Origin: Vectrevirus T147P1
Sequence record: OZ035797.1
DNA: 43,709 nucleotides
Reading direction: 5' to 3' (one strand)
The notes beneath the pieces were generated by a model, which was not told where the DNA came from, searched no databases, and saw nothing but the letters and a program-made list of their open reading frames with translations. Shown one piece after another: positions 5,974 through 39,280 of this stretch. The translations under genes and the position numbers were made by a program. The first letter of the stretch is position 1; each line of letters starts with the position of its first letter.

Positions 5974-7686
5974 ATGCTTCAAAGATTAAGTGCTTACTTG
6001 GTGAAGTACAAGAGTAAACTAACAGGTACTATTGAGCGCCTGCTATCTGATAAACTATCGGATACAATAGATGTTGCGGATTTTGGAGTTAATCCATCTT
6101 CTAATGACAACAGGCAAGCCCTTCAAGCTGCATTCAATGCGGTCAGATTTCTAGGCGGAGGTACTGTATCAGTCACTAAAGCTGGCGAATATAAACTCAG
6201 TGGTACTGTTGAGATATTTGCTAATACACACTTCAAGGTTGCTAAAGGTGTAACATTTGTACGTGACTACGAAACAGGAGATACGCTATTCAGATTATCA
6301 CAAGGGCAAGCTAGTAATGTAACAGTCAGTGGAGGTGTCTATGAAGGCAATGGTCACATTAAAGGAGATACACCTTTTGTAGTATTTGCATCTACTAGTA
6401 ATAATGATTTGAAGTTTGAAGGCATAACAGTTAACAATGTAGTGGACTACCACGCCATAGATTTAGCAGATTGGAACAACGTAGTTATTCGTGATTGTAA
6501 GTTCCTAGGGTTTAAGAATACAGGCAGTCGTAACTTCTCAGAGGCTATACAGTTAGACCCAGGACTTATTACAGTAGGTCGCTATGTGCAGTCTAGTGGT
6601 TTACTGGTAGAGAATTGCTATGCTGGCCCAAACCTTGATTCTGGATTTGGCGGGTATGGTGCTCTAGTAGGAAATCATGCATCAGCTTATGGTGTTCAAG
6701 ATAACAACATTAGAATCCTAAATTGCACTACAGATGGTGCGCTCTTTGCAGGTGTACGTGTATTTAACTGGAAAAACTGGACAGTACGTGGTTGCACCTT
6801 TAGAAACTCTAATGCAAGAGGTGTTCATGTTACACCTGTCTCCTCTCAAACTAAACCGCAAGGAACTCGACAAGGCAGTGTTGTAGATTGTACTTTTGAT
6901 GGCGTAAGAACACCAGTGCTAATTGCGGCACCATCTTGGCCTTTTACCGATATTAGTGACATTTGGCATGACCATATTGAAATTTCTAATAATACTATGA
7001 TCCTCACAGAGGATGTATCCTATGGTGTAGATGCAAGGTGGTGTAAGAATTTAATTGTAAAAGGTAATACAGGCTCTGGTGGCTTAGGGTTAATCGGTTT
7101 ACGCTTTGGGACAAAATACCACATCGAAGGTAATACTTGGGAAAACGGAAGAGGTAGTGGGATTTGGTTAGGTGAGTCTGATGCTGCTACATTCATTGGT
7201 ACTGGCTTATCGGGCGAAGGTATACTTAGTCGTAATATCCTCTCTAAATTAGGGCAATATGGTATTCATGTAAACTGCAAGGTTGGCGGTCTAGTGATTA
7301 AGGCTAATAATATGAAGGAAGTATCTACAGCTGAAGCAGGTAGGCACTTCATTAGCATAGACACAGGAGCTAACAACATCCTAGTAGAAGGTAATATTGG
7401 AGTAGATGGAGAAAGCCCTAACAAGCCAAGCCTTGGTATTCGTGTTACTTCTTCTTGCTCCAATATTAAACTAATTGGCAATGATTGCTATGGTACGCAA
7501 GCACCTCAGAATAACCAAGGAGTCGGTTCTAGTACGGTGATTGTTTATGGACTAAATGGTAACCCTACAACTTTAGGCGTAGGTGCACCTGTAGGCTCTT
7601 TAGCAACTGATATCAATGGGTCTGGTGGTAGTACATTGTACGTTAAAGAATCTGGTACATCTGCTCAAGGTTGGGTTGCAAAGTAG
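5974..7686 (+). CDS. tailspike protein 2, pectate-lyase-like beta-helix depolymerase
   Basis: 570 aa after AAAAGGAGG; N-terminal IDVADFGVNPSSNDNRQALQAAF resembles the pectate-lyase-3 motif of capsule depolymerases; Gly/Asn-rich repeats. Confidence 0.75.
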   Translation: MLQRLSAYLVKYKSKLTGTIERLLSDKLSDTIDVADFGVNPSSNDNRQALQAAFNAVRFLGGGTVSVTKAGEYKLSGTVEIFANTHFKVAKGVTFVRDYETGDTLFRLSQGQASNVTVSGGVYEGNGHIKGDTPFVVFASTSNNDLKFEGITVNNVVDYHAIDLADWNNVVIRDCKFLGFKNTGSRNFSEAIQLDPGLITVGRYVQSSGLLVENCYAGPNLDSGFGGYGALVGNHASAYGVQDNNIRILNCTTDGALFAGVRVFNWKNWTVRGCTFRNSNARGVHVTPVSSQTKPQGTRQGSVVDCTFDGVRTPVLIAAPSWPFTDISDIWHDHIEISNNTMILTEDVSYGVDARWCKNLIVKGNTGSGGLGLIGLRFGTKYHIEGNTWENGRGSGIWLGESDAATFIGTGLSGEGILSRNILSKLGQYGIHVNCKVGGLVIKANNMKEVSTAEAGRHFISIDTGANNILVEGNIGVDGESPNKPSLGIRVTSSCSNIKLIGNDCYGTQAPQNNQGVGSSTVIVYGLNGNPTTLGVGAPVGSLATDINGSGGSTLYVKESGTSAQGWVAK

Positions 7687-7849: not shown

Positions 7850-8700
7850 GTTAATATCTTAGTGTACACAAGGGCAGACCTAGGTTTGCTCTTAGTGTAT
7901 TTACAATGGAGGTCTTATGTATATACCTATTGAAGCAATAGTAGGTTGCCTATGTTTGTTGATAGGTTTCGTTATAGGCGTAATAGCAAAGCCTTAGTAC
8001 TGTACAAGGATTAACCAAAGTCAAAATTTTGATATAGGCGTGTGTCAGCTCTCTCGCCCTCGCCCTCGCCGGGTTGTCCCCATATGGGGTCGGTCGGCGG
8101 TTGACCTAGGAATTTGGCGGGGCGGGTCCGTCTTCAACCTGCTGCCGCAGGAAGCTCGACGGGTGGGCGAGGGCTTGCCTTGTACTCGCTTAGTGGTACA
8201 CAAGGAGAACGCCTAGGAAGCGCTAGGGCACGCCTTAGTATTGGACAAGGTGATTGCCTTAGTTCAACCGCTTAGAGCTTACACGGGCCGTTTTAGGGCC
8301 ATTCCTGAGCGTTTGACAGGGTGTGAGGGCGTGGGCTATCTGTTCGTTTCGTTCACTCCGCTTGCGCTACGTTCACTCGCTCACGTGTACCTTAGGTTAT
8401 TCCTTGATGGATAGCTTAGGTTAGCCTTAGTGGATTACCTTAGTTAAAGCCTTAGTGCTTCACTTAGTATCAGCTTAGTAGTGTACCTTAGTAAGTATTA
8501 GTGTCTTCTCTTAGTGATTGCACATGCAAGCATGTAAGATGCCATTAGGTCGCGGTCGGTAGACCGCTAAAGAAGGAGAATAGTAATAAGATGCAGTAGG
8601 AGGAACACCCGAAACCTAGCCAACCTAGCCTATCCTAGCTCTGTATCTATTGCTTTTCCTTAGTCTAACATGTGAGACAACCTAGATTTATCTTAGTGAT
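7850..8700. repeat. genome terminus-like non-coding region with short repeats
   Basis: no long ORF; two copies of CTTAGTG(G)TACACAAGG near 7859 and 8189; GC-rich island with CTCGCC x3 (8053-8070) and CCCCATATGGGG (8078-8089); >10 copies of CCTTAGT/GCTTAG within 8230-8520; resembles the T7 left-end architecture. Confidence 0.5.
8664..8679. repeat. degenerate copy of the palindromic hairpin family
   Basis: GTCTAACATGTGAGAC, one substitution from the GTCTCACATGTGAGAC palindrome. Confidence 0.35.
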
Positions 8701-8712
8701 GATATCTTAGTG

Positions 8713-8741
8713 TTGACAAGGCCATCTCAATATAATACTAT
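8713..8741 (+). promoter_or_regulatory. host sigma70-like early promoter candidate
   Basis: TTGACA, 17-nt spacer, TACTAT; position corresponds to T7 early promoters near the left end. Confidence 0.45.
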
Positions 8742-8842
8742 TCATCACGTAGGCAGCACTGAGGTGCTTAGTAGCCAGCTAGTAAGGCATACGAAGAGAC
8801 TAGCGCTTACATTGCTCTTTAACAATTTGCTTAGTGTAACCT

Positions 8843-9666: not shown

Positions 9667-9999
9667 ATGGAACGCAATGCTAACGCTTACTACAACCTTC
9701 TGGCTGCAACTGTTGAAGCATTCAACGAGCGTATTCAGTTTGATGAGATTCGCGAAGGTGATGATTACTCTGATGCACTACATGAGGTTGTAGACAGCAA
9801 TGTTCCAGTTTATTACAGCGAAATCTTTACAGTGATGGCTGCTGATGGTATTGATGTTGATTTTGAGGATGCTGGTTTGATTCCTGACACGAAGGATGTA
9901 ACCAAGATTCTACAAGCTCGCATCTATGAAGCTCTTTATAATGATGTACCAAATGACAGCGATGTAGTTTGGTGTGAAGGCGAAGAAGAGGAAGAATAA
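9667..9999 (+). CDS. ocr: Ocr (gp0.3) DNA-mimic anti-restriction protein
   Basis: 110 aa, acidic; DEIREGDDYSDALHEVVDSNVPVYYSEIFTVMAADGIDVDFEDAGLIPDTKDVTKILQARIYE aligns closely to T7 Ocr as recalled; poly-Glu C-terminus. Confidence 0.9.
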   Translation: MERNANAYYNLLAATVEAFNERIQFDEIREGDDYSDALHEVVDSNVPVYYSEIFTVMAADGIDVDFEDAGLIPDTKDVTKILQARIYEALYNDVPNDSDVVWCEGEEEEE

Positions 10000-10001
10000 G
10001 G

Positions 10002-10115
10002 ATGGAAAAGCAATATAACTTTATCTTTTCAGACGGTGTAACCCTGAAGTGTTCCCTACGATTCGCACAAATTCGTGAGGAAGTACTAGGCACTACATAC
10101 AAACTATTTAGCTGA
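10002..10115 (+). CDS. small early protein, possibly gp0.4-like
   Basis: 37-aa ORF after AAGGA, directly downstream of ocr as T7 gene 0.4 is; weak similarity (SDxV...SL..AQ..E). Confidence 0.3.
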   Translation: MEKQYNFIFSDGVTLKCSLRFAQIREEVLGTTYKLFS

Positions 10116-10191
10116 CACTATAAGAGAAGGCTTAACAAGGCGTTACTAAGGTAGCGCCTGATTAAACTTTCACTTACTAGAGGTTAAGATT

Positions 10192-10317: not shown

Positions 10318-10380
10318 ATAGCCTATAGCCTACCTGAGTGGGCTATGTGATATTTACTTACACTATATAAGGTGACTATT

Positions 10381-11304
10381 ATGACTACTGAAAACATCCT
10401 CCTGTCTGTCCGTGAAGCTGCAACTGCTGAGATTAAGCAGCATTTGGATAATATCGGCACTTCTTACATCAAAGTTGGCGCTTGTCTGAATGAATTACGC
10501 GGTGATTTCGAAGGTCAAAAAGACTTTTTAGCTTATGTAGAATCAGAGTTCGGCATCAAGAAAGCACAATGCTACAAGCTGATGAGTGTAGCCCGTGTCT
10601 TTGAAGGAGACGAACGCTTTAAAGGTGTGGCTATGCGTGTAATGCTGGCGCTTGTTCCTTTCGCTGATGAAAATATAATCATGGAGAAGGCCGCAGAACT
10701 CGCCGCAGAGGGCAAGCTGGACACTAACGCCGTAAACGCTCTGATTGATCCTAAGAAAGAGACAAAGGCTGAGACGGTACAATCTAAGGCTGAGACAGTA
10801 AAACCGCAGGAGAACGCGACTGAGGCCGCAGAAACTATGCAAGGACATGCAACCTTTGAGGATTTCATCTTAGAGAAGGCGAAAGAGGATTTACAAAGTG
10901 TGCCGCCAGTAAGTGAGTCGGGTAACGACGAATCCGCACCGTGGGAAGAGGAAAGCAAACCGGAAGAGCCAAAGGCAGCTCCGATGGATAACACGGCTAA
11001 TACTGAGAATGCCGCTATTGCTGGTCTGCTGGCACAAATTAAAGCACTGACTGAGCAATTACAGGCAGCCAATGACCGCATCGCCTCCTTAAGTAGCGCA
11101 CGCGAAAGCAAGAAGGCAGCCGCGCCTATGCTGCCGCAATTCAAATCTTCCTGCTTCTATGCTCGCTTAGGTTTAAGCGCTGAGGAGGCAACGAAGAAAA
11201 CAGCAGTTAACAAGGCACGCCGCGAACTGGTTAAGCTAGGCTACGGCGAAGGCCATGAAGCATGGCCCTTAATCTCTGAGGCAGTAGAAGAATTAACTAA
11301 GTAA
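10381..11304 (+). CDS. early protein of unknown function (non-kinase occupant of the T7 0.7 position)
   Basis: ATG at 10381 after AAGGTG; 307 aa; helical N-domain, acidic low-complexity linker with repeated KAETV, C-terminal FYARLGLSAEEATKK...ARREL segment; no protein-kinase motifs. Confidence 0.6.
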   Translation: MTTENILLSVREAATAEIKQHLDNIGTSYIKVGACLNELRGDFEGQKDFLAYVESEFGIKKAQCYKLMSVARVFEGDERFKGVAMRVMLALVPFADENIIMEKAAELAAEGKLDTNAVNALIDPKKETKAETVQSKAETVKPQENATEAAETMQGHATFEDFILEKAKEDLQSVPPVSESGNDESAPWEEESKPEEPKAAPMDNTANTENAAIAGLLAQIKALTEQLQAANDRIASLSSARESKKAAAPMLPQFKSSCFYARLGLSAEEATKKTAVNKARRELVKLGYGEGHEAWPLISEAVEELTK

Positions 11305-11367: not shown

Positions 11368-13995
11368 ATGCAAGACCTACACGCTATTCAACTTCAACTT
11401 GAAGAAGAAATGTTTAACGGCGGTATCCGTCGCTTTGAAGCGGACCAACAACGCCAGATTGCATCCGGTAATGAATCAGACACGGCATGGAATCGCCGCT
11501 TATTGTCCGAGTTAATCGCGCCAATGGCTGAAGGTATTCAGGCTTATAAGGAAGAGTACGAAGGCAAGCGCGGTCGTGCACCACGTGCATTGGCTTTCAT
11601 TAACTGCGTAGAAAATGAAGTGGCAGCGTATATCACGATGAAGATCGTAATGGATATGCTTAACACTGATGTAACCTTGCAAGCTATCGCTATGAATGTA
11701 GCTGACCGCATCGAAGACCAAGTGCGCTTCAGTAAACTAGAAGGCCATGCAGCTAAATATTTTGAGAAGGTCAAGAAGTCACTTAAGGCAAGTAAGACTA
11801 AATCATATCGCCATGCGCACAACGTAGCGGTCGTGGCTGAGAAGTCAGTAGCTGACCGTGACGCTGATTTCTCTCGCTGGGAAGCGTGGCCTAAAGATAC
11901 CTTGCTACAAATTGGGATGACCTTGCTTGAAATCTTAGAGAATAGCGTATTCTTCAACGGGCAACCTGTCTTCCTCCGCACCTTGCGCACTAATGGCGGC
12001 AAACATGGTGTTTACTACCTACAGACTAGCGAACACGTGGGTGAATGGATAACTGCATTTAAAGAGCACGTAGCTCAGCTGAGTCCAGCCTATGCGCCTT
12101 GCGTGATTCCTCCTCGTCCGTGGGTGTCACCTTTTAATGGCGGTTTTCACACGGAGAAGGTGGCAAGCCGTATTCGTCTGGTTAAAGGTAACCGCGAGCA
12201 CGTCCGCAAGCTGACCAAAAAGCAAATGCCAGCGGTTTACAAGGCTGTTAACGCCTTACAAGCTACTAAGTGGCAGGTTAACAAGGAAGTATTGCAGGTA
12301 GTAGAAGATGTTATTCGTCTAGACCTCGGTTATGGTGTACCTTCCTTTAAGCCGCTCATTGACCGCGAGAACAAACCAGCTAACCCTGTTCCTCTTGAGT
12401 TCCAGCACCTGCGAGGCCGTGAACTTAAAGAGATGCTAACGCCGGAACAATGGCAAGCCTTTATAAACTGGAAAGGAGAATGTACCAAGCTGTATACCGC
12501 TGAAACTAAGCGCGGAAGCAAGTCGGCGGCGACCGTTCGCATGGTTGGACAAGCCCGTAAATACAGCCAGTTTGACGCAATTTATTTTGTGTATGCACTG
12601 GACAGCCGTTCACGCGTTTATGCGCAATCTAGCACGCTCTCGCCGCAATCAAACGACTTAGGCAAGGCATTGCTCCGTTTTACCGAAGGGCAGCGTCTTG
12701 ATAGCACTGAGGCGCTTAAGTGGTTTTTGGTGAACGGGGCGAATAACTGGGGTTGGGATAAGAAAACTTTTGACGTGCGCACCGCTAACGTGCTGGATAG
12801 CGAATTTCAAGACATGTGCCGCGACATTGCAGCCGACCCGCTGACCTTCACTCAATGGGTAAATGCTGATTCCCCTTATGGCTTCCTTGCATGGTGCTTT
12901 GAATATGCGCGTTATCTGGATGCACTGGACGAAGGAACGCAAGACCAATTCATGACGCACCTACCCGTCCATCAAGATGGTAGTTGCTCTGGTATCCAGC
13001 ACTATAGCGCGATGTTACGAGATGAAGTAGGTGCGAAAGCAGTAAACCTTAAGCCTTCTGACTCCCCTCAAGATATTTATGGCGCGGTTGCGCAGGTTGT
13101 TATCCAGAAGAATTACGCCTACATGAATGCAGACGACGCAGTGACTTTCACATCCGGAAGCGTCACACTTACAGGTGCAGAACTGCGTAGCATGGCTAGT
13201 GCGTGGGATATGATAGGAATCACTCGCGGATTGACCAAAAAGCCCGTAATGACACTACCTTATGGCAGCACACGTCTAACCTGCCGTGAATCAGTGATTG
13301 ATTATATCGTTGATTTAGAAGAAAAAGAGGCCCAACGGGCTATTGCGGAAGGGCGTACCGCCAATCCTGTACACCCTTTTGATAATGACCGTAAAGACAG
13401 CCTGACACCTAGCGCAGCTTATAACTATATGACAGCTTTAATCTGGCCTTCTATTTCGGAAGTGGTTAAAGCTCCTATAGTGGCAATGAAAATGATTCGT
13501 CAGCTTGCCCGTTTCGCAGCTAAAAGGAATGAAGGCTTAGAGTATACCCTGCCTACTGGCTTCATCTTGCAACAAAAGATTATGGCTACTGATATGCTCC
13601 GCGTATCTACTTGCTTGATGGGAGAAATCAAGATGAGTCTACAGATTGAAACGGACGTAGTAGATGAAACGGCAATGATGGGCGCTGCTGCTCCTAACTT
13701 TGTGCATGGTCATGATGCCAGTCACCTTATCTTAACGGTCTGCGACCTTGTTGATAAAGGGATTACATCTATCGCAGTAATTCATGATTCTTTTGGCACT
13801 CATGCAGGCCGTACAGCCGATCTACGCAACAGCTTAAGGGCAGAAATGGTGAAAATGTACCAAGGCCGTAATGCACTGCAAAGCCTGCTAGATGAGCACG
13901 AAGAACGCTGGTTAGTTGATACAGGAATCCAAGTACCAGAGCAAGGGGAGTTTGACCTTAACGAAATCTTAGTTTCAGACTATTGCTTCGCATAA
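11368..13995 (+). CDS. single-subunit DNA-directed RNA polymerase (T7 gene 1 / SP6 RNAP family)
   Basis: 875 aa; [25 protein letters not shown]-terminal SDYCFA; [18 protein letters not shown] matches the T7 RNAP segment AINIAQNTAWKINKKVL. Confidence 0.95.
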
Positions 13996-14002
13996 TATTA
14001 AT

Positions 14003-14034
14003 AGGCCATTCCTTCGGGAGTGGCCTTTCTTTTA
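14003..14034 (+). terminator. early intrinsic terminator after the RNAP gene (TE-like)
   Basis: GGCCATTCC-TTCG-GGAGTGGCC hairpin with UUCG loop followed by TTTCTTTT. Confidence 0.6.
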
Positions 14035-14068
14035 CCTACTACCTGTAACATTTCATTAACATAAACGT

Positions 14069-14084
14069 GTCTCACACGTGAGAC
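14069..14084. repeat. palindromic hairpin element (family copy A)
   Basis: GTCTCACACGTGAGAC, immediately upstream of the promoter at 14087. Confidence 0.6.
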
Positions 14085-14086
14085 TT

Positions 14087-14109
14087 ATTTACCGGACACT
14101 ATAGGATAA
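14087..14109 (+). promoter_or_regulatory. phage RNAP promoter (phi1.1A-like)
   Basis: ATTTACCGGACACTATAGGAT. Confidence 0.65.
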
Positions 14110-14248
14110 CCGTCGGAGACGGAAAGAGAAGGGAAGATAAGGATATAAAGGAAGTAATAGGTATTAAAGGTTATATAGGTTTACCTAGGAATACCTATTA
14201 CCTTCTTCCTTCCTCTTATTACTACTTAGAGAAGGTCAGACCTAAGTT
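14110..14248. other. candidate primary origin of replication (AT-rich inverted repeat between tandem phage promoters)
   Basis: AT-rich; inverted repeat GGAAGTAATAGGTATT ... AATACCTATTACCTTC flanking GGTTATATAGGTTTACCTAGG; position matches the T7 primary origin between phi1.1A and phi1.1B. Confidence 0.35.
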
Positions 14249-14264
14249 GTCTCACATGTGAGAC
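14249..14264. repeat. palindromic hairpin element (family copy B)
   Basis: GTCTCACATGTGAGAC perfect palindrome, immediately upstream of the promoter at 14270. Confidence 0.6.
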
Positions 14265-14269
14265 TTCGT

Positions 14270-14290
14270 ATTTACCGGACAGTATAGATA
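14270..14290 (+). promoter_or_regulatory. phage RNAP promoter variant (phi1.1B-like)
   Basis: ATTTACCGGACAGTATAGATA; C to G change in the conserved CACTATA core. Confidence 0.45.
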
Positions 14291-14668: not shown

Positions 14669-16656
14669 TGGCTATTATTAATAACATCCCGTGCCCTGCC
14701 TGTCAAAAGAATGGACATGATATTACTGGCAACCATCTTATGATATTTGAGGATGGCGCTGGTTACTGTAACCGTGGTCACTTCCATGATAATGGTAAGC
14801 CTTATTACCATAAGCCAGAGGGTGGTATCGAGATAACCGAATTGCCTATTACTGGCAATATCAAATATACACCTTCTCAATTCAAAGAAATGGAGAAGGA
14901 AGGGAAGATAAGCGACCCTAAGCTACGCGCCATCGCTCTTGGTGGTATGCGTATGAAAGACCGTTGGGAGGTCATGAATGAGCAAGAAAGGGCAGACCAA
15001 GAAGCAGAGTGGAAACTTGATGTTGAATGGTTCCTCACGCTTAAGCGTAAGAACCTTGTTTCCAGACACATTCGCGGCGACATTTGCGCATTGTATGATG
15101 TACGTGTCGGACACGATGAAGAGGGTAGAGTCTCGCGGCATTACTATCCACGCTTCGAGAAAGGTGAGCTAGTAGGAGCTAAGTGTCGCACATTACCTAA
15201 AGATTTTAAGTTTGGTCATTTAGGTAAACTCTTTGGTATGCAAGATCTTTTCGGTATGAATACTTTGTCTCACGTGTTAGACAAGGGGAGACGAAAGGAT
15301 TGCTTGCTTATTGTAGGCGGTGAACTTGATGCACTAGCAGCGCAGCAGATGCTCCTTGATTCTGCCAAGGGTACTAAGTGGGAGGGTCAGCCATACCATG
15401 TATGGTCTGTCAACAAAGGTGAGTCTTGCCTTGAAGAGATAGTGCAGAACCGTGAGCATATCGCCCAATTCAAGAAGATTATATGGGGTTTTGATGGAGA
15501 TGAGGTAGGGCAGAAGCAGAATCAGCAAGCGGCTCGCCTGTTTCCTGGCAAATCCTATATCCTTGAATACCCCTCTGGTTGCAAAGATGCTAACAAGGCA
15601 TTGATGGCTGGCAAGGCTAAAGAATTTGTAGATGCATGGTTTAATGCCAAGTCATCTGATGAAGTCTTTGGTAGCCAGATTAAATCTATCGCATCTCAAA
15701 GGGATAAGCTCAAGGCTGCACGTCCAGAGCAAGGACTATCATGGCCTTGGCCTAAGCTGAACAAGGTAACGCTAGGTATTCGTAAGAACCAGCTTATCAT
15801 TGTAGGTGCAGGGTCTGGTGTAGGTAAGACTGAGTTCCTTCGTGAAGTAGTTAAGCACCTCATTGAAGAACACGGTGAATCTGTAGGCATCATTTCTACA
15901 GAAGACCCGATGGTCAAGGTGTCCCGTGCTTTTATCGGCAAGTGGATTGATAAGCGTATTGAGTTACCGCCAACCAACGACCCGAAAGAAGACGGATACC
16001 GTGAGGTGTTCGACTACACCGAGGAAGAAGCTAACGCCGCCATTGATTATGTAGCTGATACAGGTAAGCTGTTTGTAGCTGACCTAGAGGGTGACTATTC
16101 GATGGAAAAGGTAGAGCAAACTTGCCTAGAGTTTGAGGCTATGGGCATTTCTAATATCATCATTGATAACTTAACGGGGATTAAATTAGATGAGCGTGCT
16201 TTTGGTGGGAAGGTTGGTGCACTTGATGAATGCGTCAAGCGGATTGGTACTATCAAAGACCGACACCCGGTTACTATATTCCTTGTATCACACCTTACAC
16301 GTCCTCCGGCAAACCGTACCCAACACGAAGAAGGTGGCGAGGTTATCCTTTCTGACTTCCGAGGCTCAGGCGCTATCGGATTCTGGGCATCTTACGCCTT
16401 GGGGATTGAGCGTAACACAAGAGCTGAAACGCTTGACGAAAGGACTACCACGTACATCTCATGTGTCAAAGACCGCGACCAAGGTATCTACACTGGAACC
16501 AAGGTCATGCTTAAGGGTGACATTCAAACCGGACGTTTAATGGAACCACAAGCCCGTACTAAGTCATTTGATACAGGTGAAGCAAGGCAACAAGAAGTAC
16601 CAGATTTACCGGACACTATAGAAGAGACTAACTTCGATGAAGAAAGTGAGTTCTGA
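14668..16656 (+). CDS. DNA primase/helicase (T7 gp4-like)
   Basis: 662 aa; N-terminal zinc ribbon CPACQ...CNRGH; Walker A GAGSGVGKTE; acidic C-terminus ending EESEF. Confidence 0.9.
   Translation: MAIINNIPCPACQKNGHDITGNHLMIFEDGAGYCNRGHFHDNGKPYYHKPEGGIEITELPITGNIKYTPSQFKEMEKEGKISDPKLRAIALGGMRMKDRWEVMNEQERADQEAEWKLDVEWFLTLKRKNLVSRHIRGDICALYDVRVGHDEEGRVSRHYYPRFEKGELVGAKCRTLPKDFKFGHLGKLFGMQDLFGMNTLSHVLDKGRRKDCLLIVGGELDALAAQQMLLDSAKGTKWEGQPYHVWSVNKGESCLEEIVQNREHIAQFKKIIWGFDGDEVGQKQNQQAARLFPGKSYILEYPSGCKDANKALMAGKAKEFVDAWFNAKSSDEVFGSQIKSIASQRDKLKAARPEQGLSWPWPKLNKVTLGIRKNQLIIVGAGSGVGKTEFLREVVKHLIEEHGESVGIISTEDPMVKVSRAFIGKWIDKRIELPPTNDPKEDGYREVFDYTEEEANAAIDYVADTGKLFVADLEGDYSMEKVEQTCLEFEAMGISNIIIDNLTGIKLDERAFGGKVGALDECVKRIGTIKDRHPVTIFLVSHLTRPPANRTQHEEGGEVILSDFRGSGAIGFWASYALGIERNTRAETLDERTTTYISCVKDRDQGIYTGTKVMLKGDIQTGRLMEPQARTKSFDTGEARQQEVPDLPDTIEETNFDEESEF
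16604..16626 (+). promoter_or_regulatory. phage RNAP promoter inside the 3' end of the helicase gene
   Basis: ATTTACCGGACACTATAGAAGAG. Confidence 0.6.
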
Positions 16657-16673
16657 TTAGTGTATTTATCAGG

Positions 16674-16697
16674 GCTTGTCTCACATGTGAGACAGGC
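16674..16697. repeat. palindromic hairpin element (family copy C)
   Basis: GCTTGTCTCACATGTGAGACAGGC; 18-bp perfect palindrome core plus flanking pairs, followed by TCTTATT. Confidence 0.6.
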
Positions 16698-16732
16698 TCT
16701 TATTAAGTACATTAAATAACTGGAGATTAACT

Positions 16733-17648: not shown

Positions 17649-17820
17649 ACATAGTCTTAAAATGTTCGATGGTCATGAAGACCTGCAAGCCAAGATTACT
17701 AACCAAGCCTTCCTGTTTGCACAGTTAACCATGGCTGAAGCAAAGAAGAATAGCCTGACGCGTGAACAGGTTATCAAGGAAAGTGAAGTGAAACGTAAGA
17801 TTCGCAGTCGATAAGTCAAG

Positions 17821-17844
17821 GGTTGTCTCACACGTGAGACAGCC
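17821..17844. repeat. palindromic hairpin element (family copy D)
   Basis: GGTTGTCTCACACGTGAGACAGCC followed by TTTCAT. Confidence 0.6.
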
Positions 17845-17965
17845 TTTCATCATATTGATTGGAGGTGCATTATGCCACGTGATTATGATTCTGATTGGGA
17901 CTATTATGACTCAATGAATCCAAAACCCGAACGTTCAGATGATTACTACGAAACAGAGGCAATGT

Positions 17966-20512
17966 ATGAAGATTATTGATTGGAAGAATGAGGCAGAAGG
18001 TCGTATCCTCGTGATGGATGCGGAAGCTAAAGGACTCCTTGACGCTATCCGATATGGGCACCGTGAAGATGTGCATATCATTTGCTGCATGGATTTGCTT
18101 ACTACCGAGGAGTTTCTCTTCTTTGACCCGTATGAGATGCGTGACCCTGAAGCAAGAGAACGCCTGAAGGAATGGGAAGGTCATCAAGATGGAACCTTGG
18201 TTGACGGTGTTAACTTCCTGAAGCACTGTGAGGCTATTGTGTCGCAGAACTTCCTAGGGTATGACGGTCTTCTCTTTGAGAAAGCATTCCCTGATATTTG
18301 GAAAGGCTTTAACTATACCGAGAAGCGCGGCAAGGGCAGACTCCGTGCTGACCTGTGTCCGGTGCGAGTCATGGATACGCTGGTGATGAGTCGCCTGTTA
18401 AACCCCGATAGACGCCTTCCTCCGCAAGCATATGCCAAAGGTATGGGTAACGTCGCCCCTCACTCAATTGAGGCGCACGGCATCCGTATAGGCCGCTATA
18501 AACCAGAGAACGAGGACTGGTCTAAACTAACTGATCACATGGTTCACCGTGTACGTGAGGATGTGGCGATTGGTCGTGACCTATTCCTCTGGCTCTTTAA
18601 CGGGGAATGGATGGAGCACAAACGCCGTGGCGTGAACAAACGTACTGGCCTAGGGATTGAGACAGCCTTCCACATGGAGTCCATTGTGGCGCTGGAGATG
18701 AGCCGTCAGGCCGAGCGCGGGTTCCGTCTGGATATTGACAAAGCACTAGCGCGATGCGAAGAATTGGACGCTAAGATTGACGAGACAGTCGCAGCGTTCC
18801 GCCCTCACATGCCTATGCGTATCAAGTCTAAACCTTTTAAACCGGAAGAAAAGAATGAAGTATGCCAACGCGCAAATGAGTATGGAGCTAGCAACAATAT
18901 ACCCACTGTCCTTGACCCCTCACACTTTCTTCATGCCGAGAGACGAGGAGATCGCAAGACAGTATGGAGTGTCACTACTAAGTCTGGTGATTGGTCGGCT
19001 AGTGTCAAGAAAGACTTTCCTCACCTTAGAGGAAACCGTAATGACACGCCAAGCATCAAGTGGATTGGCGCTTACTCGCCTGTTACTTTCGAAGAGATCC
19101 CCTTGGGTAACAGGGATACAGTTAAGCAAGTGCTCTATGATTATGGATGGAAGGGTGTTGAATTTAATGATACCGAGCAAGCACACCTTGATGAGTATGG
19201 AGTGTTACCCAAACCTTGGAGTGGGAAGATAAATGAAAAGTCCCTTACTTTATGGCAAGAGAGAGCCGCACGTGAAGGTAAAACAGTACCCGATTGGTGC
19301 TTGGGTATCGCTGCATGGTACATACTCGTATCCCGTCGTGGTCAGATCCTCAACCGTGGTGACGTTGAAGCCTTCAACGAGAAAGGGACGTGGCCTTCGC
19401 AAGCTGGTGTACGAAAGTGTCGCGGCCTTGTACCTGTAGCATTTAACAAGGAGCTAGGAATCAATGCGCAGCAATACTACGAGAGGTACGGATGCTGGCC
19501 TACGTCAGACAAGGATGACGGAGAGTGGCGTGTTCCAGCTGTTGCTATTAGCATTGGCACTTCTACGTTCCGTATGCGTCATCGTAACGTGGTTAATATT
19601 CCTGCCCGTGGCTTGTATCCTTTACGTGATTTATTCATAGCAGGGAAAGGCAAGCTAATCCTTGGTTGTGACGGTGCAGGTCTTGAACTGCGTGTCCTGT
19701 CTCACTTCATGAATGACCCTGAGTACCAAGAGATTGTACTGCACGGTGATATTCATACGCATAACCAGATGAAGGCTGGTCTTCCTAAGCGTGATATGGC
19801 GAAGACGTTTATATACGCCTTCCTCTATGGCTCTGGTATAGCCAACCTTGCAGCAGTATGTGGTGTTACTGAGGAAGAAATGAAGGAAGTTGTGGCAAGA
19901 TTCGAGATTGAACTGCCGTCTCTTGCACGTCTTCGTGAGAATGTTATCGCACAAGGTAACAAGTTTGGCTACCTGCAAGCACCTGATGGGCATTGGGGTC
20001 GCATCCGCATGTCTGGTGGTGAACTTAAAGAGCACACGATGCTTAACGTATTACTCCAGATGACTGGCTCTTTGTGTATGAAATATGCATTAGTCAAGGC
20101 ATTTGCAGTAATGCGCAAGGAAGGTGTAGCCTTGGATGCTATGGGAAATCCTTGTGGTGTGGCTAACGTGCATGATGAAATCCAGATGGAAGTTCCTGAA
20201 GAGGAGGTCTTGTATCTTAACTACGACCTACCTTTCACCTTAGATGGGTTCGAAACAGAGAAGGCTGCCGTGAAAGCAGTGTTCGATGCAGAGGAGAAAC
20301 GTGTTCATGTGGATTCTGAAGGACGTATGTGGTCTGCTGCAAACCTCGTTAGTGTTGATGCTGATGCTGGTGTATTGCATTGCCAGCGCCGTTATCACCG
20401 TGCAGGTCATATCATTGCCGACGCCATGACTTGGGCAGGGCAGTATCTGAAGATGCGTTGCCCGATGGCAGGCGAATATAAGATTGGCGCAAGTTGGAAG
20501 GAAACACACTGA
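17966..20512 (+). CDS. DNA polymerase, family A (T7 gp5-like) with 3'-5' exonuclease domain
   Basis: ATG at 17966 after AGAGG; Exo I-like LVMDAEAKG; polymerase motifs DGAGLELRVLSH, KTFIYAFLYGSG, VHDEIQ. Confidence 0.9.
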   Translation: MKIIDWKNEAEGRILVMDAEAKGLLDAIRYGHREDVHIICCMDLLTTEEFLFFDPYEMRDPEARERLKEWEGHQDGTLVDGVNFLKHCEAIVSQNFLGYDGLLFEKAFPDIWKGFNYTEKRGKGRLRADLCPVRVMDTLVMSRLLNPDRRLPPQAYAKGMGNVAPHSIEAHGIRIGRYKPENEDWSKLTDHMVHRVREDVAIGRDLFLWLFNGEWMEHKRRGVNKRTGLGIETAFHMESIVALEMSRQAERGFRLDIDKALARCEELDAKIDETVAAFRPHMPMRIKSKPFKPEEKNEVCQRANEYGASNNIPTVLDPSHFLHAERRGDRKTVWSVTTKSGDWSASVKKDFPHLRGNRNDTPSIKWIGAYSPVTFEEIPLGNRDTVKQVLYDYGWKGVEFNDTEQAHLDEYGVLPKPWSGKINEKSLTLWQERAAREGKTVPDWCLGIAAWYILVSRRGQILNRGDVEAFNEKGTWPSQAGVRKCRGLVPVAFNKELGINAQQYYERYGCWPTSDKDDGEWRVPAVAISIGTSTFRMRHRNVVNIPARGLYPLRDLFIAGKGKLILGCDGAGLELRVLSHFMNDPEYQEIVLHGDIHTHNQMKAGLPKRDMAKTFIYAFLYGSGIANLAAVCGVTEEEMKEVVARFEIELPSLARLRENVIAQGNKFGYLQAPDGHWGRIRMSGGELKEHTMLNVLLQMTGSLCMKYALVKAFAVMRKEGVALDAMGNPCGVANVHDEIQMEVPEEEVLYLNYDLPFTLDGFETEKAAVKAVFDAEEKRVHVDSEGRMWSAANLVSVDADAGVLHCQRRYHRAGHIIADAMTWAGQYLKMRCPMAGEYKIGASWKETH

Positions 20513-20628
20513 TGGATAGGCTTGACATTGTTTGCCTATTCTTCACTTTCTTTCTTACACTCCTTATGCTTGCTTGTTATGGGAGTATGAGACTAGATAT
20601 ACCTGATGAAGAAGAGGGTTACGACTAA
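20512..20628 (+). CDS. tiny membrane peptide 1 (38 aa)
   Basis: ATG overlaps DNAP stop (TGATG); hydrophobic LFFTFFLTLLMLA then acidic tail ending GYD. Confidence 0.3.
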   Translation: MDRLDIVCLFFTFFLTLLMLACYGSMRLDIPDEEEGYD

Positions 20629-20726
20629 TGCAAACTGCTTTTATTATTCTTGGTATCATATTATTTATGGTAGTACTCTGGGCCTTCTCTGGCATTGACC
20701 CGGATTGTGATGGTAACTACGACTGA
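20628..20726 (+). CDS. tiny membrane peptide 2 (32 aa)
   Basis: ATG overlaps previous stop (TAATG); hydrophobic FIILGIILFMVVLWAF then acidic tail ending NYD. Confidence 0.3.
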   Translation: MQTAFIILGIILFMVVLWAFSGIDPDCDGNYD

Positions 20727-22622: not shown

Positions 22623-22638
22623 GTCTCACGTGTGAGAC
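22623..22638. repeat. palindromic hairpin element (family copy E, reverse-orientation centre)
   Basis: GTCTCACGTGTGAGAC, upstream of the promoter at 22654. Confidence 0.6.
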
Positions 22639-22653
22639 AAATCGGTGTCCGGT

Positions 22654-22676
22654 ATTTACTGGACACTATAGAAGAG
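22654..22676 (+). promoter_or_regulatory. phage RNAP promoter
   Basis: ATTTACTGGACACTATAGAAGAG exact consensus. Confidence 0.75.
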
Positions 22677-35522: not shown

Positions 35523-36268
35523 TGGCTATAGGTTCAGCCGTTATGGCTGGTATGTCTTCTATTGGTAGTATGTTTGCAGGTAGCGGTGCAGCCGCCGCTG
35601 CTGGTGGTACTGCCGCAGCAGCAGGAGGGACAGCCGCCGCAGGTGGCGGAGGTTTGCTTGGCTCCCTTGGTAGTTTCTTAGGAGGTACTTCTGCTGGCTT
35701 CTCTAATGCAGGACTGCTTAGTGCAGGTATGCAAGGTCTTGGTCTTCTAGGCAATCTTTTTGGTGGAAGTGATGAAGCCAAAGCTATGAAGAAAGCTCAG
35801 GAGGAGCAATGGCGGCAGCAGTTAATTGCTACACAAGAAGCATATAAGACAGTGGCAGATGCAGAACGCTCTGCTGCTAAACAGTATCATGCGGATGCAA
35901 TAAGCAATCAGGCTTCACTGCTACAGCAAAGAGCGCAGGTTGCACTACTTGCAGGTGCAACTGGCACTGGTGGTAACTCTGTATCTTCTATGCTGAATGA
36001 CTTAGCAGCAGAGGGCGGGAGGAACCAGAGTACAATTATTGATAACTATGAGAATCAGAAGATTAACTTCACCAATCAGCTTAAGTCTATCCAGCGAGGT
36101 GGACAGATGCAGATGCGTGAGTTTAAGAAGCCTTCTGCCGTGAGCACCTTGGTGCAAGGTATACCGAGTCTGGCATCTGCCTATGTAACAGGTAGTAAGT
36201 CCGGCATGGCTTTAGGTAAAGCTTTAACTGATTCTCGTACATATTCATCTGGAACAAGAGGTATTTAA
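35522..36268 (+). CDS. internal virion protein (gp14-like)
   Basis: ATG at 35522 after AAGGAGGG; Gly/Ala-rich hydrophobic N-terminus; position before the large internal virion proteins. Confidence 0.55.
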   Translation: MAIGSAVMAGMSSIGSMFAGSGAAAAAGGTAAAAGGTAAAGGGGLLGSLGSFLGGTSAGFSNAGLLSAGMQGLGLLGNLFGGSDEAKAMKKAQEEQWRQQLIATQEAYKTVADAERSAAKQYHADAISNQASLLQQRAQVALLAGATGTGGNSVSSMLNDLAAEGGRNQSTIIDNYENQKINFTNQLKSIQRGGQMQMREFKKPSAVSTLVQGIPSLASAYVTGSKSGMALGKALTDSRTYSSGTRGI

Positions 36269-39216
36269 TGGCAATTGAGCGACAAGCAGTACAAGGTCTG
36301 CCACAAGTGCAGGCCACTTCTCCTAATGTCATGACCTTTGCACCTCAGCGAGTTGGAGGTGTGGAGGCTGGCGTAGCTTCTACCTCCGGTAGTCGATTTA
36401 TCGAAGACCTTATTCGAGCAGCCAGTAGTGTAGCTGATGTAACCACTGGTATCCTTAATCAAAAGATTGAGGAAGATAAGGTTGTTCAAATGGAACGGGC
36501 ATATAACGGATTAATGCCTTCTGAGGATGCAACTCGTGGTGGCGCTCGTGCTAACATGCTTGTCAAAGCTCAACTGCTAGCTAATGATGAAGCAGCACGA
36601 ATGAAAGACATGGCTACTCGTTTCCAAGGAACGGATGACGAGTGGACACAACTTATGGTTGACTCTCGTAATGAGATGCAGAATAAGCTGTTCCAGCAAT
36701 ACCCTGAGTTGCAAGGTGACAAAGATACTATGCGTATGGTCACTAATGTCTTCCAAGAACAGCAGCCTCAGATTTGGGCTACACGAACCCAGCATAAACT
36801 TGACCGTGAACAAGCAGACCGTGAGGATACCTTTGACGGGCGAGTGGCTTCTACTTGGGATTCTAATATTGACCCTGAAGCCTCTGGCTATGCTTTACAG
36901 GAACGGATCCGCGAAGGTCTTACTCAAGGATTACTACCTGAACAGATGCACAAGAAGTTAGTCCAGCGAGCAATTTCACTTGCACAAGGCGGTGATGTTA
37001 GCATGGCTGAAGCCCTGAAGTATGTGAAGGACGATAAGGGTGTTTCTGTTTATGCTAAGAATCCACAGCTTATCACAGCCATCACTAGTGGTAATGCAGT
37101 TTGGGCTAGGAATAATATAGCTGATGTAACTCGTATGTCTTTCGAAGTTAAAGAATCCTACCTTGCAGGTGATTTAACTGATGAAGAATTGTTGGAACGA
37201 GCACAGCACATTAATAATCTGACAGGTAACTCTGTCTTCTCTAATCCAGAGCTAGAGGCACTGATGCGCCAACGGGCTAAGCAGAATGCAGAGCTAGGTG
37301 CAATGCAGGATATGCGACGTGAGCTTTACTCCGACCGCCTGACTGGCTTCCAAGGTAAGACTGATAAAGAGAAGAAGGCTTACATTGATGTTATCAAACA
37401 GGATAGCCAACTTTATGCAGACCAGCAAATCAAACAACGTGGCTTGGACCCTTACAGTCAAGAGGCTGAAGCTATTCGTGGTGCAGTGGAAGTGCAGCGC
37501 CTGCAATTCATGAACTCCAAAGGCTTAGTGGATGATACCTTTGAGTCTCGTATCAAAGCCATGGAGTCTATGCTATCGCCTGAGCACTTTGCCAAGGGCG
37601 AACCACAGGAGTTGATGACTATTCGCCAGTTGTGGGAACAGTTGCCAGAAGAGAGCCGAGGTGTCTTTGGTGACACGGTGAATGGCTACATGGATAACTA
37701 CAACACTGCACTACAAATGGGAGAGACACCTTTGCAGGCTGCAAGGTTTGCGCGTGAAGCACAGCAGAAATTCTCTCGTACTGAGAAGGAAACCAAGAAG
37801 TTCAACTCAGCTATTGGAGATGCACTGGATGAGGTATCTGGTGCTGGCTGGTTTGATGGTAAAACCGAAGTGTCAGACTTAGGTAAAGCTATTGCGGAAG
37901 AAGAGTTACGAGCTAAGGCCAATATGTTGTGGTCTAGTGGTATGCGTAACATGGATTCTATCAAGAAGGCTTTAATTACTTGGGGCAATAAACGCTACAC
38001 TCAAACAGAGGATGCAAAGACTTCCGGTGGCTATTTCATTAAAGGTGATTACACTTCTGCATCTGATATGCTTATGTCAGTTGGGAAAGGCGTAAACCCT
38101 ACCGATGTACCTCTGGCGCTTGGTAGGTATGTAGAAATACAGATGCCAGAATTGAAGAAGGAGCTTCAAGAGTGGGAAACTAAAGATGATATATACATTG
38201 ATTACAATGAACAGAAAGGAACTTTTGTGATTCGTGCTGGTGCAGCAGGTCGCCCTCTTTCTGGAGTAATCCCTGTAACCTCTTTAGATACTACTTCACT
38301 ACTAGATTCTGCCTATCAGAAGAAAGTAGAGGAACGAGATAAAGGCGAGTATGTCCACCCGTATCGTACAGATATTGGTGCACAAGAGCCTATGCCAGCT
38401 AAACCAACTGCCAAAGATATTGGTAAATTTGGACTAGCTAACTTCCTCATGTCTTCTGCTTTTGCTTCTGGTGAGAATCTGCCTTCTAACTTCGAGATTA
38501 ACTATCGAGGTAATATGCAACAATTCTATGACAAGCTAGCTATGGATGAGAATAAAGATAAAGTTGGCTTTAATAAGGCAACTGGAACCTTTACTCCATA
38601 TAAAGACGCTCACGGTGAGTCTATCGGTTACGGTCATTTCTTAACGGAAGAAGAGAAGCGAAACGGGTATATTAAGATTGGCGATGAACTAGTTCCCTAT
38701 CGAGGGTCTATGTCTCAGCTTACAGAGAGCAAGGCTCGTGCTCTTATGGAGCAAGATGCTAAGAAGCATGTGCCTCCTACTCGCGACTGGAAGATTCCGT
38801 TTGACCAGATGCACCCTGCACAGCAACGTGGCTTGATGGATTTAAGCTACAATTTAGGTAAAGGTGGAATCCAGGACTCACCGCGTGCTCTTGCTGCATT
38901 CAAAGCTGGTAAGCTTACGGAAGGCTTTATCGAAATGCTGGGCACTGCATCAAGTGAAGGTAAGCGTATCCCTGGCCTACTGAAGCGACGCGCTGAGGCA
39001 TACAATATGGCATCTGCTGGTGGTGTGCCTAAGATTACCGAAGTGGAGACTCGTGAAGATGGCTCCATGTGGGTTAGGTTTGGTGGACCTATGCCAGCAG
39101 GTTCTGTCTCGGCATGGACTCATAAACGTATTGGCGCGGATGGTTGGTATCAGGTTTATGAGGCTGCACCTACCAAGTTAGCTAAAGGTTCTAAGGTAGG
39201 TAAAGTTAAGTTGTAG
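36268..39216 (+). CDS. internal virion protein (gp15-like) with C-terminal lysozyme-like domain
   Basis: 982 aa; C-terminal YKDAHGESIGYGHFLTEEE...QQRGLMDLSYNLG resembles the T4-lysozyme-type motif YKDxEGxxTIGIGH. Confidence 0.75.
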   Translation: MAIERQAVQGLPQVQATSPNVMTFAPQRVGGVEAGVASTSGSRFIEDLIRAASSVADVTTGILNQKIEEDKVVQMERAYNGLMPSEDATRGGARANMLVKAQLLANDEAARMKDMATRFQGTDDEWTQLMVDSRNEMQNKLFQQYPELQGDKDTMRMVTNVFQEQQPQIWATRTQHKLDREQADREDTFDGRVASTWDSNIDPEASGYALQERIREGLTQGLLPEQMHKKLVQRAISLAQGGDVSMAEALKYVKDDKGVSVYAKNPQLITAITSGNAVWARNNIADVTRMSFEVKESYLAGDLTDEELLERAQHINNLTGNSVFSNPELEALMRQRAKQNAELGAMQDMRRELYSDRLTGFQGKTDKEKKAYIDVIKQDSQLYADQQIKQRGLDPYSQEAEAIRGAVEVQRLQFMNSKGLVDDTFESRIKAMESMLSPEHFAKGEPQELMTIRQLWEQLPEESRGVFGDTVNGYMDNYNTALQMGETPLQAARFAREAQQKFSRTEKETKKFNSAIGDALDEVSGAGWFDGKTEVSDLGKAIAEEELRAKANMLWSSGMRNMDSIKKALITWGNKRYTQTEDAKTSGGYFIKGDYTSASDMLMSVGKGVNPTDVPLALGRYVEIQMPELKKELQEWETKDDIYIDYNEQKGTFVIRAGAAGRPLSGVIPVTSLDTTSLLDSAYQKKVEERDKGEYVHPYRTDIGAQEPMPAKPTAKDIGKFGLANFLMSSAFASGENLPSNFEINYRGNMQQFYDKLAMDENKDKVGFNKATGTFTPYKDAHGESIGYGHFLTEEEKRNGYIKIGDELVPYRGSMSQLTESKARALMEQDAKKHVPPTRDWKIPFDQMHPAQQRGLMDLSYNLGKGGIQDSPRALAAFKAGKLTEGFIEMLGTASSEGKRIPGLLKRRAEAYNMASAGGVPKITEVETREDGSMWVRFGGPMPAGSVSAWTHKRIGADGWYQVYEAAPTKLAKGSKVGKVKL

Positions 39217-39228
39217 TACCTAACTCAA

Positions 39229-39254
39229 GGCTTGTCTCACATGTGAGACAGGTC
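39229..39254. repeat. palindromic hairpin element (family copy F)
   Basis: GGCTTGTCTCACATGTGAGACAGGTC between gp15-like and gp16-like genes, followed by TTTATG. Confidence 0.6.
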
Positions 39255-39280
39255 TTTATGATAGGCACTATGGAGGAATT

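Follow-up and report, generated by a model that had tools for sequence, protein, structure and literature searches.

The gene analyzed here occupies positions 10381-11304 (plus strand) of a 43,709-nucleotide DNA from Vectrevirus T147P1 (sequence record OZ035797.1; "the window" hereafter means this whole stretch) and encodes a protein of 307 residues. The window shows the linear genome of a Vectrevirus (K1-5/K1E/SP6-like; Autographiviridae, Molineuxvirinae) in circular permutation, with the left end of that genome at about 8040. The sequence gctctctcgccctcgccctcgcc near 8046 (window 8040-8100) resembles what we take to be the terminal-repeat start of SP6/K1-5-type genomes; given the circular permutation, open reading frames (ORFs) before about 8046, such as 5974-7686 (570 residues), would accordingly lie at the genome's right end. 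The reading frame of interest runs from an ATG at 10381 to a stop codon ending at 11304, is preceded by the ribosome-binding site AAGGTG (10369-10374, plus strand, 6 nucleotides before the ATG, read from the sequence), and is the largest between the left end and the gene for the 875-residue single-subunit RNA polymerase (RNAP; 11368-13995, plus strand). ORF, ribosome-binding site and translation confirm what an earlier sequence-only reading of this DNA had stated, namely that this is the largest early gene before the RNAP gene. That reading went on to regard the product as a host-directed takeover or anti-defense factor, an interpretation that our results support only in part. Our analyses revealed a predicted plasmid-type DNA-binding fold, a degenerate J-like domain and a recurrent genomic palindrome whose half-site covaries among phages with one residue of the protein, and they point to an undescribed regulatory circuit of protein and palindromes rather than a host-directed factor.

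An AlphaFold2 model built with a 60-sequence alignment resolves a helical N-terminal domain (residues 10-122; predicted local distance difference test score, pLDDT, above 90), a disordered segment (about 125-205), a long helix (206-243) and a confidently predicted C-terminal domain (250-307). Model and composition bear out the three-part architecture proposed earlier, and structure prediction of the two end domains, a check suggested in the sequence-only reading, returned in silico a helix-turn-helix domain at the N terminus and a J-like domain at the C terminus. Both are unrelated to the kinase fold, and Pfam and NCBIfam scans gave no kinase signal; the absence of kinase motifs stands, and a kinase hypothesis was set aside. 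The single 307-residue sequence matches no Pfam, NCBIfam or PADLOC family.

The N-terminal domain (10408-10746, plus strand) is predicted to adopt a KorB/ParB/SopB-type helix-turn-helix fold with a distant relation to DUF3102. Modeled alone it reaches a pLDDT of 93.6, and the figures listed in the fold comparison are 7.3 and 6.7 for KorB, 6.4 for Spo0J, 6.1 for ParB, 5.6 for SopB, 5.4 for VirB and 5.2 for P1 ParB; the predicted fold contains the ParB-type helix-turn-helix of the ParB/KorB superfamily. DUF3102 (PF11300) matches 21 of the 60 relatives weakly over this domain (best E 1.1e-6) and gives no match to the window protein itself at E ≤ 1. The N-terminal ParB/Srx CTP-binding domain is absent, as the helix-turn-helix domain starts at residue 10, no ParBc Pfam match was obtained, and the N-terminal extensions of relatives contain no ParB-type match. 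Searched against PDB sequences, a profile of the domain found nothing and the single full-length sequence found only noise. The helix-turn-helix proper, delimited by predicted secondary structure, conservation and covariation, spans residues 46-74 (10516-10602, plus strand), with KAQCYKLMSVARVF as the recognition helix. On and around this helix lies a conserved basic and polar set (K40, K61, Q63, Y65, K66, K69 and R86), in which K66 (codon 10576-10578, plus strand), at position 6 of the recognition helix, is the candidate specificity residue.

Behind this domain follows an acidic, disordered linker of variable length (residues 123-205; 10747-10995, plus strand; pLDDT 47-65) that is unconserved across the family. 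As described before, it carries repeated KAETV units; there are two, at residues 129 and 136, encoded by a 21-nucleotide direct repeat (AAGGCTGAGACGGTA at 10765 and AAGGCTGAGACAGTA at 10786; window 10765-10800), and residues 116-215 have a net charge of -13. Most Vectrevirus homologues have 294 rather than 307 residues, which indicates that the linker gains and loses short units. The long amphipathic helix beyond it (residues 206-243; 10996-11109, plus strand; pLDDT 85-95) is a candidate coiled coil with conserved leucine/isoleucine spacing in the family consensus; judging from the model, it is probably a coiled-coil dimerization element.

The C-terminal domain (residues 247-307; 11119-11301, plus strand), which includes the segment FYARLGLSAEEATKKTAVNKARRELVKLGY, is J-like and is preceded by a conserved PxLPQF motif. 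The model shows the antiparallel helices II and III and the flanking helix I of a J fold, whereas helix IV is missing. Pfam DnaJ (PF00226) matches 6 of the 60 relatives at E ≤ 0.01 and does not match the window protein at E ≤ 1, which places the latter below the gathering threshold. A profile of the domain searched against PDB sequences retrieved almost only J domains (best E 5e-4), and the J domain of SV40 large T antigen is a structural match. We therefore regard the J-like fold and its remote homology to J domains as real. The HPD tripeptide, which is needed for productive Hsp70 coupling, is absent from the window protein and from all 60 relatives, in agreement with the earlier description of a J-domain resemblance lacking HPD; the loop at its position reads GYGEGH, or YTAxxxP in other subfamilies. 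Because HPD is missing throughout the family, we do not class the protein as a J-domain co-chaperone, nor could it be a canonical one for Hsp70, and its J-like domain is most simply viewed as a protein-binding or self-association module. HPD-less J-like domains can pair with real J domains, as Tim16 binds Tim14, and by this analogy a link to the host Hsp70 system is possible. The LPQF motif was also considered as a clamp-binding peptide and rejected: it does not fit the clamp-binding consensus QL[SD]LF, and AlphaFold2 packs it onto the J-like domain with a pLDDT of about 97.

What could the helix-turn-helix domain read? The window contains a recurrent palindrome of 16 bases, GTCTCACNNGTGAGAC, of the pattern GTCTCAC-NN-GTGAGAC. 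Counting sites with at most two mismatches to GTCTCACATGTGAGAC, we found in silico eight copies in the window against 0.23 expected, and none of 100 shuffled sequences reached eight. The first copy (GTCTAACATGTGAGAC, 8663-8678) lies near the left end, 35 bp 5' of the -35 hexamer of the first of the sigma70-type early promoters (8713 and 9297). Three copies stand immediately upstream of phage-RNAP promoters: GTCTCACACGTGAGAC (14069-14084) is 2 bp from the promoter at 14087, GTCTCACATGTGAGAC (14249-14264) is 5 bp from that at 14270, and GTCTCACGTGTGAGAC (22623-22638) is 15 bp from that at 22654. The copy GTCTCACGTGTTAGAC (15267-15282) is inside the primase/helicase gene, in a relative position that is also occupied by a site in SP6 and Klebsiella H01. 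The remaining three, located right after the primase/helicase stop codon (16678-16693), in the intergenic stretch ahead of the DNA polymerase gene (17825-17840), and between the large ORFs 36268-39216 and 39281-42589 (39234-39249), which are syntenic with internal-virion-protein genes of phage H01, form the apices of bipartite sense-strand hairpins with folding energies of -26.6, -22 and -21.1 kcal/mol (z -7.7, -5.4 and -4.0, respectively). These hairpins (16660-16712, 17807-17859 and 39216-39268, plus strand) are built of an upper stem of 13 bp and, below an internal loop, a lower stem of 9, 7 and 4 bp, respectively, and their stem extensions use G.U pairs that exist on the sense strand only. 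They resemble T7 RNase III processing sites, with the palindrome as the tip. As RNA, the left-end and promoter-proximal copies fold no better than shuffled sequence; the palindrome thus stands in two kinds of setting.

The two copies behind the RNAP gene are part of an ordered arrangement, consisting of a terminator-like hairpin (14003-14026), a palindrome, the promoter at 14087, a 140-bp A/G-rich stretch, a second palindrome and the promoter at 14270. In location and arrangement, we take the region 14003-14290 to correspond to the primary replication origin of T7, with its phi1.1A/phi1.1B and AT-rich region.

All 20 genomes or contigs examined that encode a homologue carry a recurrent 16- or 17-bp palindrome in 2-11 copies, with the exception of one 3-kb contig with a single imperfect copy. 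The element reads GTC(C/T)AAC-NN-GTTGGAC in SP6 (nine copies; SP6-type site GTCCAACATGTTGGAC), GTCCAAC-NN-GTTGGAC in Klebsiella H01 (seven) and Lelliottia phD2B (at least eight), and GTCCAAC-NNN-GTTGGAC in Proteus Pm5460 (five). It is GTCTCAC-NN-GTGAGAC in Erwinia phiEa100 (nine copies), and GTCTCAC-NNN-GTGAGAC in Vibrio VEN (eight), Pseudomonas Njord and Achelous (11 each) and Aeromonas MJG (at least six). Vibrio BD5 has GTCTAAC-NN-GTTAGAC (at least nine), Pectobacterium PP99 and E. coli ECBP5 have GTCTAGT-NN-ACTAGAC (seven and at least five), and Marinomonas CPP1m has GTTCGAG-AT-CTCGAAC (at least four). Conserved imperfect copies occur in Ralstonia Reminis (GTCTCTT-AT-AGGAGAC, at least six) and Pantoea Nufs112 (GTCTCCT-AC-AGTGGAC, at least about four). 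The lower bounds for MJG, ECBP5, CPP1m, Reminis, Nufs112, BD5 and phD2B refer to about half of each genome (24-26 kb scanned). Four short metagenomic contigs have GTCTACA, GTCTACC or GTCTCAC half-sites near the gene, and the contigs of the metagenomic representatives, at 2-4.6 kb, give local palindrome information only. phiKMV has neither a homologue nor such a palindrome family; T7 has no homologue, and the sole palindrome family found there is the core of its own promoter. A link between spacer length (2 or 3 bp) and a four-residue Colwellvirinae insertion in the protein was rejected, since Pm5460 has a 3-bp spacer without the insertion.

The sites are syntenic across genomes, recurring close to the left end, right after the RNAP gene alongside the first phage promoters, within the primase gene or shortly past it, and ahead of the DNA polymerase gene; the pair behind the RNAP gene is conserved in most genomes examined. 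Many sites, in several genera, lie 0-15 bp upstream of phage-RNAP promoters. Flanking sequences suggest such promoter-proximal placement in SP6, phiEa100, VEN, MJG, Pm5460 and CPP1m as well, where the promoters are annotated in the record for Pm5460 and were recognized by eye in the other five. Extended hairpins are found at syntenic places in SP6, H01, VEN, Njord, Achelous, MJG, Pm5460, PP99 and ECBP5, with one to three sites forming them in most other genomes examined. The sequence of the 7-bp arms, beyond their mere pairing, is conserved between phages whose proteins are about 35% identical, while the central bases vary freely. In the Gajwadongvirus phages and Ralstonia Reminis, a second palindrome family of the type GTACTAGT-N2-GCTAGTAC lies 20-50 bp from several copies of the first (PP99, L011: 161, 7939, 8017 and 16305; ECBP5, L015: 5995, 6061 and 14590; Reminis, L017: 11494 and 20430-20710), pointing to a composite operator or to another DNA-binding factor.

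The half-site and the recognition helix change together. K66 accompanies GTCTCAC in seven phages, and H66 or N66 accompanies GTC(C/T)AAC in five. In PP99 and ECBP5, W63 and R66 (together with R86E) go with GTCTAGT; in metagenomic contigs, Y63 and R66 go with GTCTAC(A/C); in Reminis and Nufs112, W63, F65 and K66 go with GTCTCCT; and CPP1m combines a completely different recognition helix with GTTCGAG. The two half-site classes are told apart by five of the 249 ungapped alignment columns; among these five, residue 66 alone lies in a folded domain and alone is invariant within a class (K in seven of seven versus H or N in five of five). A neighbor-joining protein tree nests the window phage (K66, TCAC) within the clade of N/H66 (CAAC) phages, with phiEa100 (K66) outside it, and joins BD5 (N66) and P0129 (K66) as a separate sister pair. 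From these branches it follows that the switch from K to N or H and that from C to A at half-site position 5 have coincided at least three times independently. Lysine commonly contacts guanine and asparagine adenine, and a lysine opposite the C:G pair at position 5, or an asparagine or histidine opposite A:T, would make plausible contacts. On the strength of this covariation, observed in silico, we propose that K66 is a direct specificity determinant of the predicted DNA-binding domain.

We infer from these data that the 307-residue protein binds the palindromes, a prediction that we consider likely. With moderate confidence, we extend it to the statement that the protein binds the phage's own DNA site-specifically as a dimer and is probably a global regulator. 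In this model, the N-terminal helix-turn-helix domain would read the 7-bp half-site GTCTCAC, and the coiled coil of residues 206-243 would pair two chains, such that the dimer would sit on GTCTCAC-NN-GTGAGAC. One of the eight sites would be occupied ahead of the early promoters and two beside the pair of phage-RNAP promoters that come first after the RNAP gene, with the remaining sites at boundaries of DNA-metabolism genes and in the late region. The placement at promoters, the left end and the origin-like region suggests a KorB-like global regulator, and the protein may act as a CTPase-less analogue of KorB, an operator-binding regulator of the phage's transcription units. The J-like domain may serve as an interaction module through which the protein either associates with itself or contacts a partner, for instance a real J domain, DnaK or an RNA polymerase.

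How does this model relate to the distribution of the family? The ORF is no chance reading frame: clustering at 90% leaves 340 relatives, clustering at 50% identity gives 130 clusters, and 213 phage records contain a relative. The protein is 99% identical to that of 'Vectrevirus T147P9' and 95-97% identical to those of many E. coli K1 phages; 86 phage records are near-identical, and the annotated ones read 'hypothetical protein'. Its counterparts are SP6 gp7 and K1E Gp6, and PHROG 4571 (phrog_4571) matches over the full length (E 1.3e-130; residues 1-307 versus profile positions 1-287 of 289). The phages infect Escherichia, Klebsiella, Salmonella, Proteus, Erwinia, Pectobacterium, Vibrio, Aeromonas, Pseudomonas syringae, Marinomonas, Ralstonia, Pantoea and Shewanella, while no relatives were found in a plasmid collection or in a species-representative collection of bacterial and archaeal genomes. 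The family alignment shows both end domains conserved and the linker varying in length and sequence. In all four annotated loci inspected (vB-Eco-KMB14, H01, VEN and Njord), the homologue is located directly, or one small ORF, 5' of the RNAP gene, a synteny that spans two subfamilies. Synteny and end-domain conservation argue for a core early regulatory gene rather than an accessory counter-defense gene. Homologues are labeled variously in phage records as 'endolysin' or 'andolysin', 'putative prolipoprotein diacylglyceryl transferase', 'periplasmatic protein' and 'late transcription factor', none of which is backed by domain analysis, and in database records also as kinase.

The host-directed role put forward in the sequence-only reading finds no support in these results. 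The N-terminal domain is of the KorB/ParB type and its specificity residue tracks a phage palindrome, and an anti-defense role is further disfavored by the PADLOC result (no family at E ≤ 1), the absence from plasmid, bacterial and archaeal collections and the fixed core synteny. A specific version would make the protein a chaperone decoy: its J-like domain, lacking HPD, would engage either DnaK or, much as Tim16 binds Tim14, the J domain of the host proteins DnaJ, CbpA or DjlA, thereby blocking or redirecting Hsp70 early in infection, and the N-terminal domain would target host DNA or a host protein. This appears rather improbable to us, given that HPD is lacking in 60 of 60 relatives, that the candidate specificity residue follows phage and not host sequences, and that phages of such diverse hosts as Escherichia, Vibrio, Pseudomonas, Ralstonia and Marinomonas carry the gene in a syntenic, core-like setting; as a second function of the C-terminal domain, it would be compatible with regulation through the palindromes. 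A quite different possibility is that the palindromes are RNA elements unrelated to the protein, such as RNase III sites, 3'-end stabilizers or RNAP pause or termination hairpins, and that the correlation with residue 66 reflects shared descent. The sites at 16678, 17825 and 39234 do sit at the apices of T7 RNase III-like bipartite hairpins (-21 to -27 kcal/mol, z -4 to -7.7), and the sense-strand-only G.U extensions recur in most related genomes. Nevertheless, we consider this explanation unlikely for the palindrome as a whole: the left-end and promoter-proximal copies have no folding propensity above that of shuffled sequence, the left-end copy lies 5' of the early promoters, the arms are conserved in sequence at about 35% protein identity while the loop bases are free to vary, contrary to what is typical where RNA hairpins are recognized, and the single folded-domain position separating the half-site classes has switched at least three times independently. 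Arm conservation, the variable center and the covariation of residue 66, together with the asymmetric copies of Nufs112 and Reminis, which make poor hairpins and better fit degenerate protein half-sites, favor recognition of duplex DNA for the core, and an additional RNA-level role of the extended copies is likely.

Closest to our model is the proposal that the protein binds the palindromes and serves replication or genome organization instead, marking the origin-like region or bridging sites like a ParB/SopB centromere binder in order to organize or protect replicating DNA, with the J-like domain used as in polyomavirus T antigen. It shares palindrome binding with the global-regulator model and differs in the downstream role only, and a replication-start role at the origin-like region behind the RNAP gene would be a possible, close alternative. 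Two sites flank the 140-bp A/G-rich stretch, each beside a phage promoter (14069-14290), and this pairing is retained in most genomes examined; all half-sites but one start with GTC, the recognition triplet of T7-type primases; and polyomavirus T antigen, whose SV40 member supplies the structural match noted above, joins an origin-binding domain to a J domain. Yet most sites lie away from the origin-like region, evidence for spreading or bridging is lacking, and the protein has no CTPase domain and no ParA or IncC partner was seen, the latter statement covering the annotation tables retrieved for related phages, which list no ParA-type product, and not a systematic scan of the window's ORFs. 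We accordingly give an exclusive role in replication or genome organization a low probability.

Several points weigh against the regulator model itself. The evidence for binding is correlation throughout, drawn from sequence comparison, and the presence and absence of protein and palindrome is confounded by descent, because the two controls, T7 and phiKMV, are phylogenetically distant. Part of the palindrome's conservation is at the RNA level, given that three of the eight sites here, and one to three in most relatives, are hairpin apices. The asymmetric variants have one orientation at internal sites and the opposite one at genome ends, a pattern that a symmetric dimer leaves unexplained. The N-terminal domain is slightly acidic (mean net charge -2.5), with the strongly acidic linker behind it. 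Finally, the data would fit activation, repression or another action alike.

A perfect SP6-type phage-RNAP promoter, ATTTAGCTGACACTATA (10106-10122, plus strand, zero mismatch), lies 5' of a 41-residue ORF, the 307-residue gene and the RNAP gene, so that the latter two may also be transcribed by the phage polymerase in a positive feedback; the same promoter arrangement is described for phiA318 (PMC4099482). SP6-type promoters with the consensus ATTTAC(C/T)GGACACTATA, recorded at 10106-10122 and 11 further sites, give 15 hits in the window versus 1.9 expected. Between the 41-residue ORF and the gene are a 10-bp hairpin, TATAGCCTACCTGAGTGGGCTATG (10324-10347), and the sequence ATTTACTTACACTATA (10353-10372), which resembles a phage promoter minus one base. 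This region may serve in processing or attenuation, or it may be a promoter that has decayed. About 380 bp upstream of the gene, with the 41-residue ORF in between, a 110-residue early ORF (9667-9999, plus strand) encodes a homologue of the DNA-mimic anti-restriction protein Ocr (T7 gp0.3; PF08684, E 9.6e-31). At the corresponding position in OR424384, two small ORFs 5' of the homologue, a 119-residue ORF is annotated 'protein kinase', a label that looks wrong if this is the same gene as Ocr, an identity assumed from position only. In many relatives, a gene for an S-adenosylmethionine (SAM) lyase/hydrolase or a 'SAM-dependent methyltransferase' is found one or two positions upstream of the homologue (metagenomic contigs L020, L023 and L024; phiEa100, L013, at 2209-2640; BD5, L025; phD2B, L026); together with Ocr in the window, these make an anti-restriction gene a frequent upstream neighbor. 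The genome ends carry a further repeat, the hexamer CTTAGT, with 18 plus-strand copies in about 1 kb (7858-8835) versus 0.27 expected, out of 32 on the plus strand of the whole window. Several copies extend to CTTAGTGTACACAAGG-like units, and one overlaps the -35 element of the early promoter at 8713. The array recalls the short-repeat arrays beside T7 terminal repeats; as a binding target of the protein it was set aside, being non-palindromic, and T7 presumably has analogous arrays without the 307-residue protein.

What would the relevance of such a circuit be? SP6/K1-5-type phages are sources of RNA polymerases, capsule-targeting therapeutic phages and engineering chassis, and to our knowledge they have no recognizable T7 gp0.7, gp2 or lysozyme-type RNAP regulator. 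A reader protein with operator-like palindromes beside promoters is a concrete candidate for middle and late transcription and genome control in SP6-like phages. In the literature that we covered, which did not include the SP6 genome and K1-5/SP6 comparative papers, where an earlier mention is possible, we found nothing on the function of DUF3102, the 307-residue protein or the palindrome. The one-residue code, K66 versus N/H66, may provide orthogonal protein-operator pairs for synthetic biology, and the family is a further example, from bacterial viruses, of a J-like domain joined to a DNA-binding-type domain. We further speculate, while holding the idea to be doubtful, that SP6-like and Colwellvirinae phages mark their own DNA by a private, fast-evolving pair of a CTPase-less ParB/KorB-type reader and a palindrome (5-11 dispersed sites), with the HPD-less J-like domain of the reader on DNA capturing or neutralizing a host J-protein or Hsp70 component or the phage RNAP and so coupling self-recognition to the early-to-middle switch or to replication start, and with the palindrome doubling as the tip of an RNA-processing hairpin. 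If true, such marking of self DNA would amount to a plasmid-style global regulon in a strictly lytic phage of the T7 supergroup.

Known systems resemble the protein in parts. With T7 gp0.7 it shares only its place on the map, both being encoded by the final large early gene ahead of the RNAP gene; unlike gp0.7, it contains neither a kinase domain nor a kinase motif, and the two proteins differ in fold and show no similarity in sequence. A published remark calls the phiA318 equivalent 'similar to gene 0.7' (PMC4099482); such a similarity is not supported for the family described here. Like Tim16/Pam16, the C-terminal domain is J-like and HPD-less, with a sequence relation limited to the general J-domain signal; in contrast to Tim16/Pam16, it lacks helix IV, has the PxLPQF extension packed on it and is fused to a DNA-binding-type domain. 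Rki of phage RB43, which Perrody and colleagues reportedly described in 2012, is said to be a phage-encoded J-type domain protein that keeps HPD and works through DnaK, whereas the present family never has HPD (none of 60). The closest known system is KorB of the IncP plasmid RK2 (ParB family; PDB 1r71 and 8qa8). Unlike KorB, the phage protein begins with the helix-turn-helix domain and has no N-terminal ParB/Srx CTPase domain, a putative coiled coil and a J-like domain stand in its C-terminal part where KorB has a dimerization domain, the promoters concerned belong to a single-subunit RNAP of a strictly lytic phage, and sequence similarity is undetectable. What the two have in common is the DNA-binding fold, predicted here for the phage protein, and many palindromic operators, or operator-like sites, dispersed over their own replicon.

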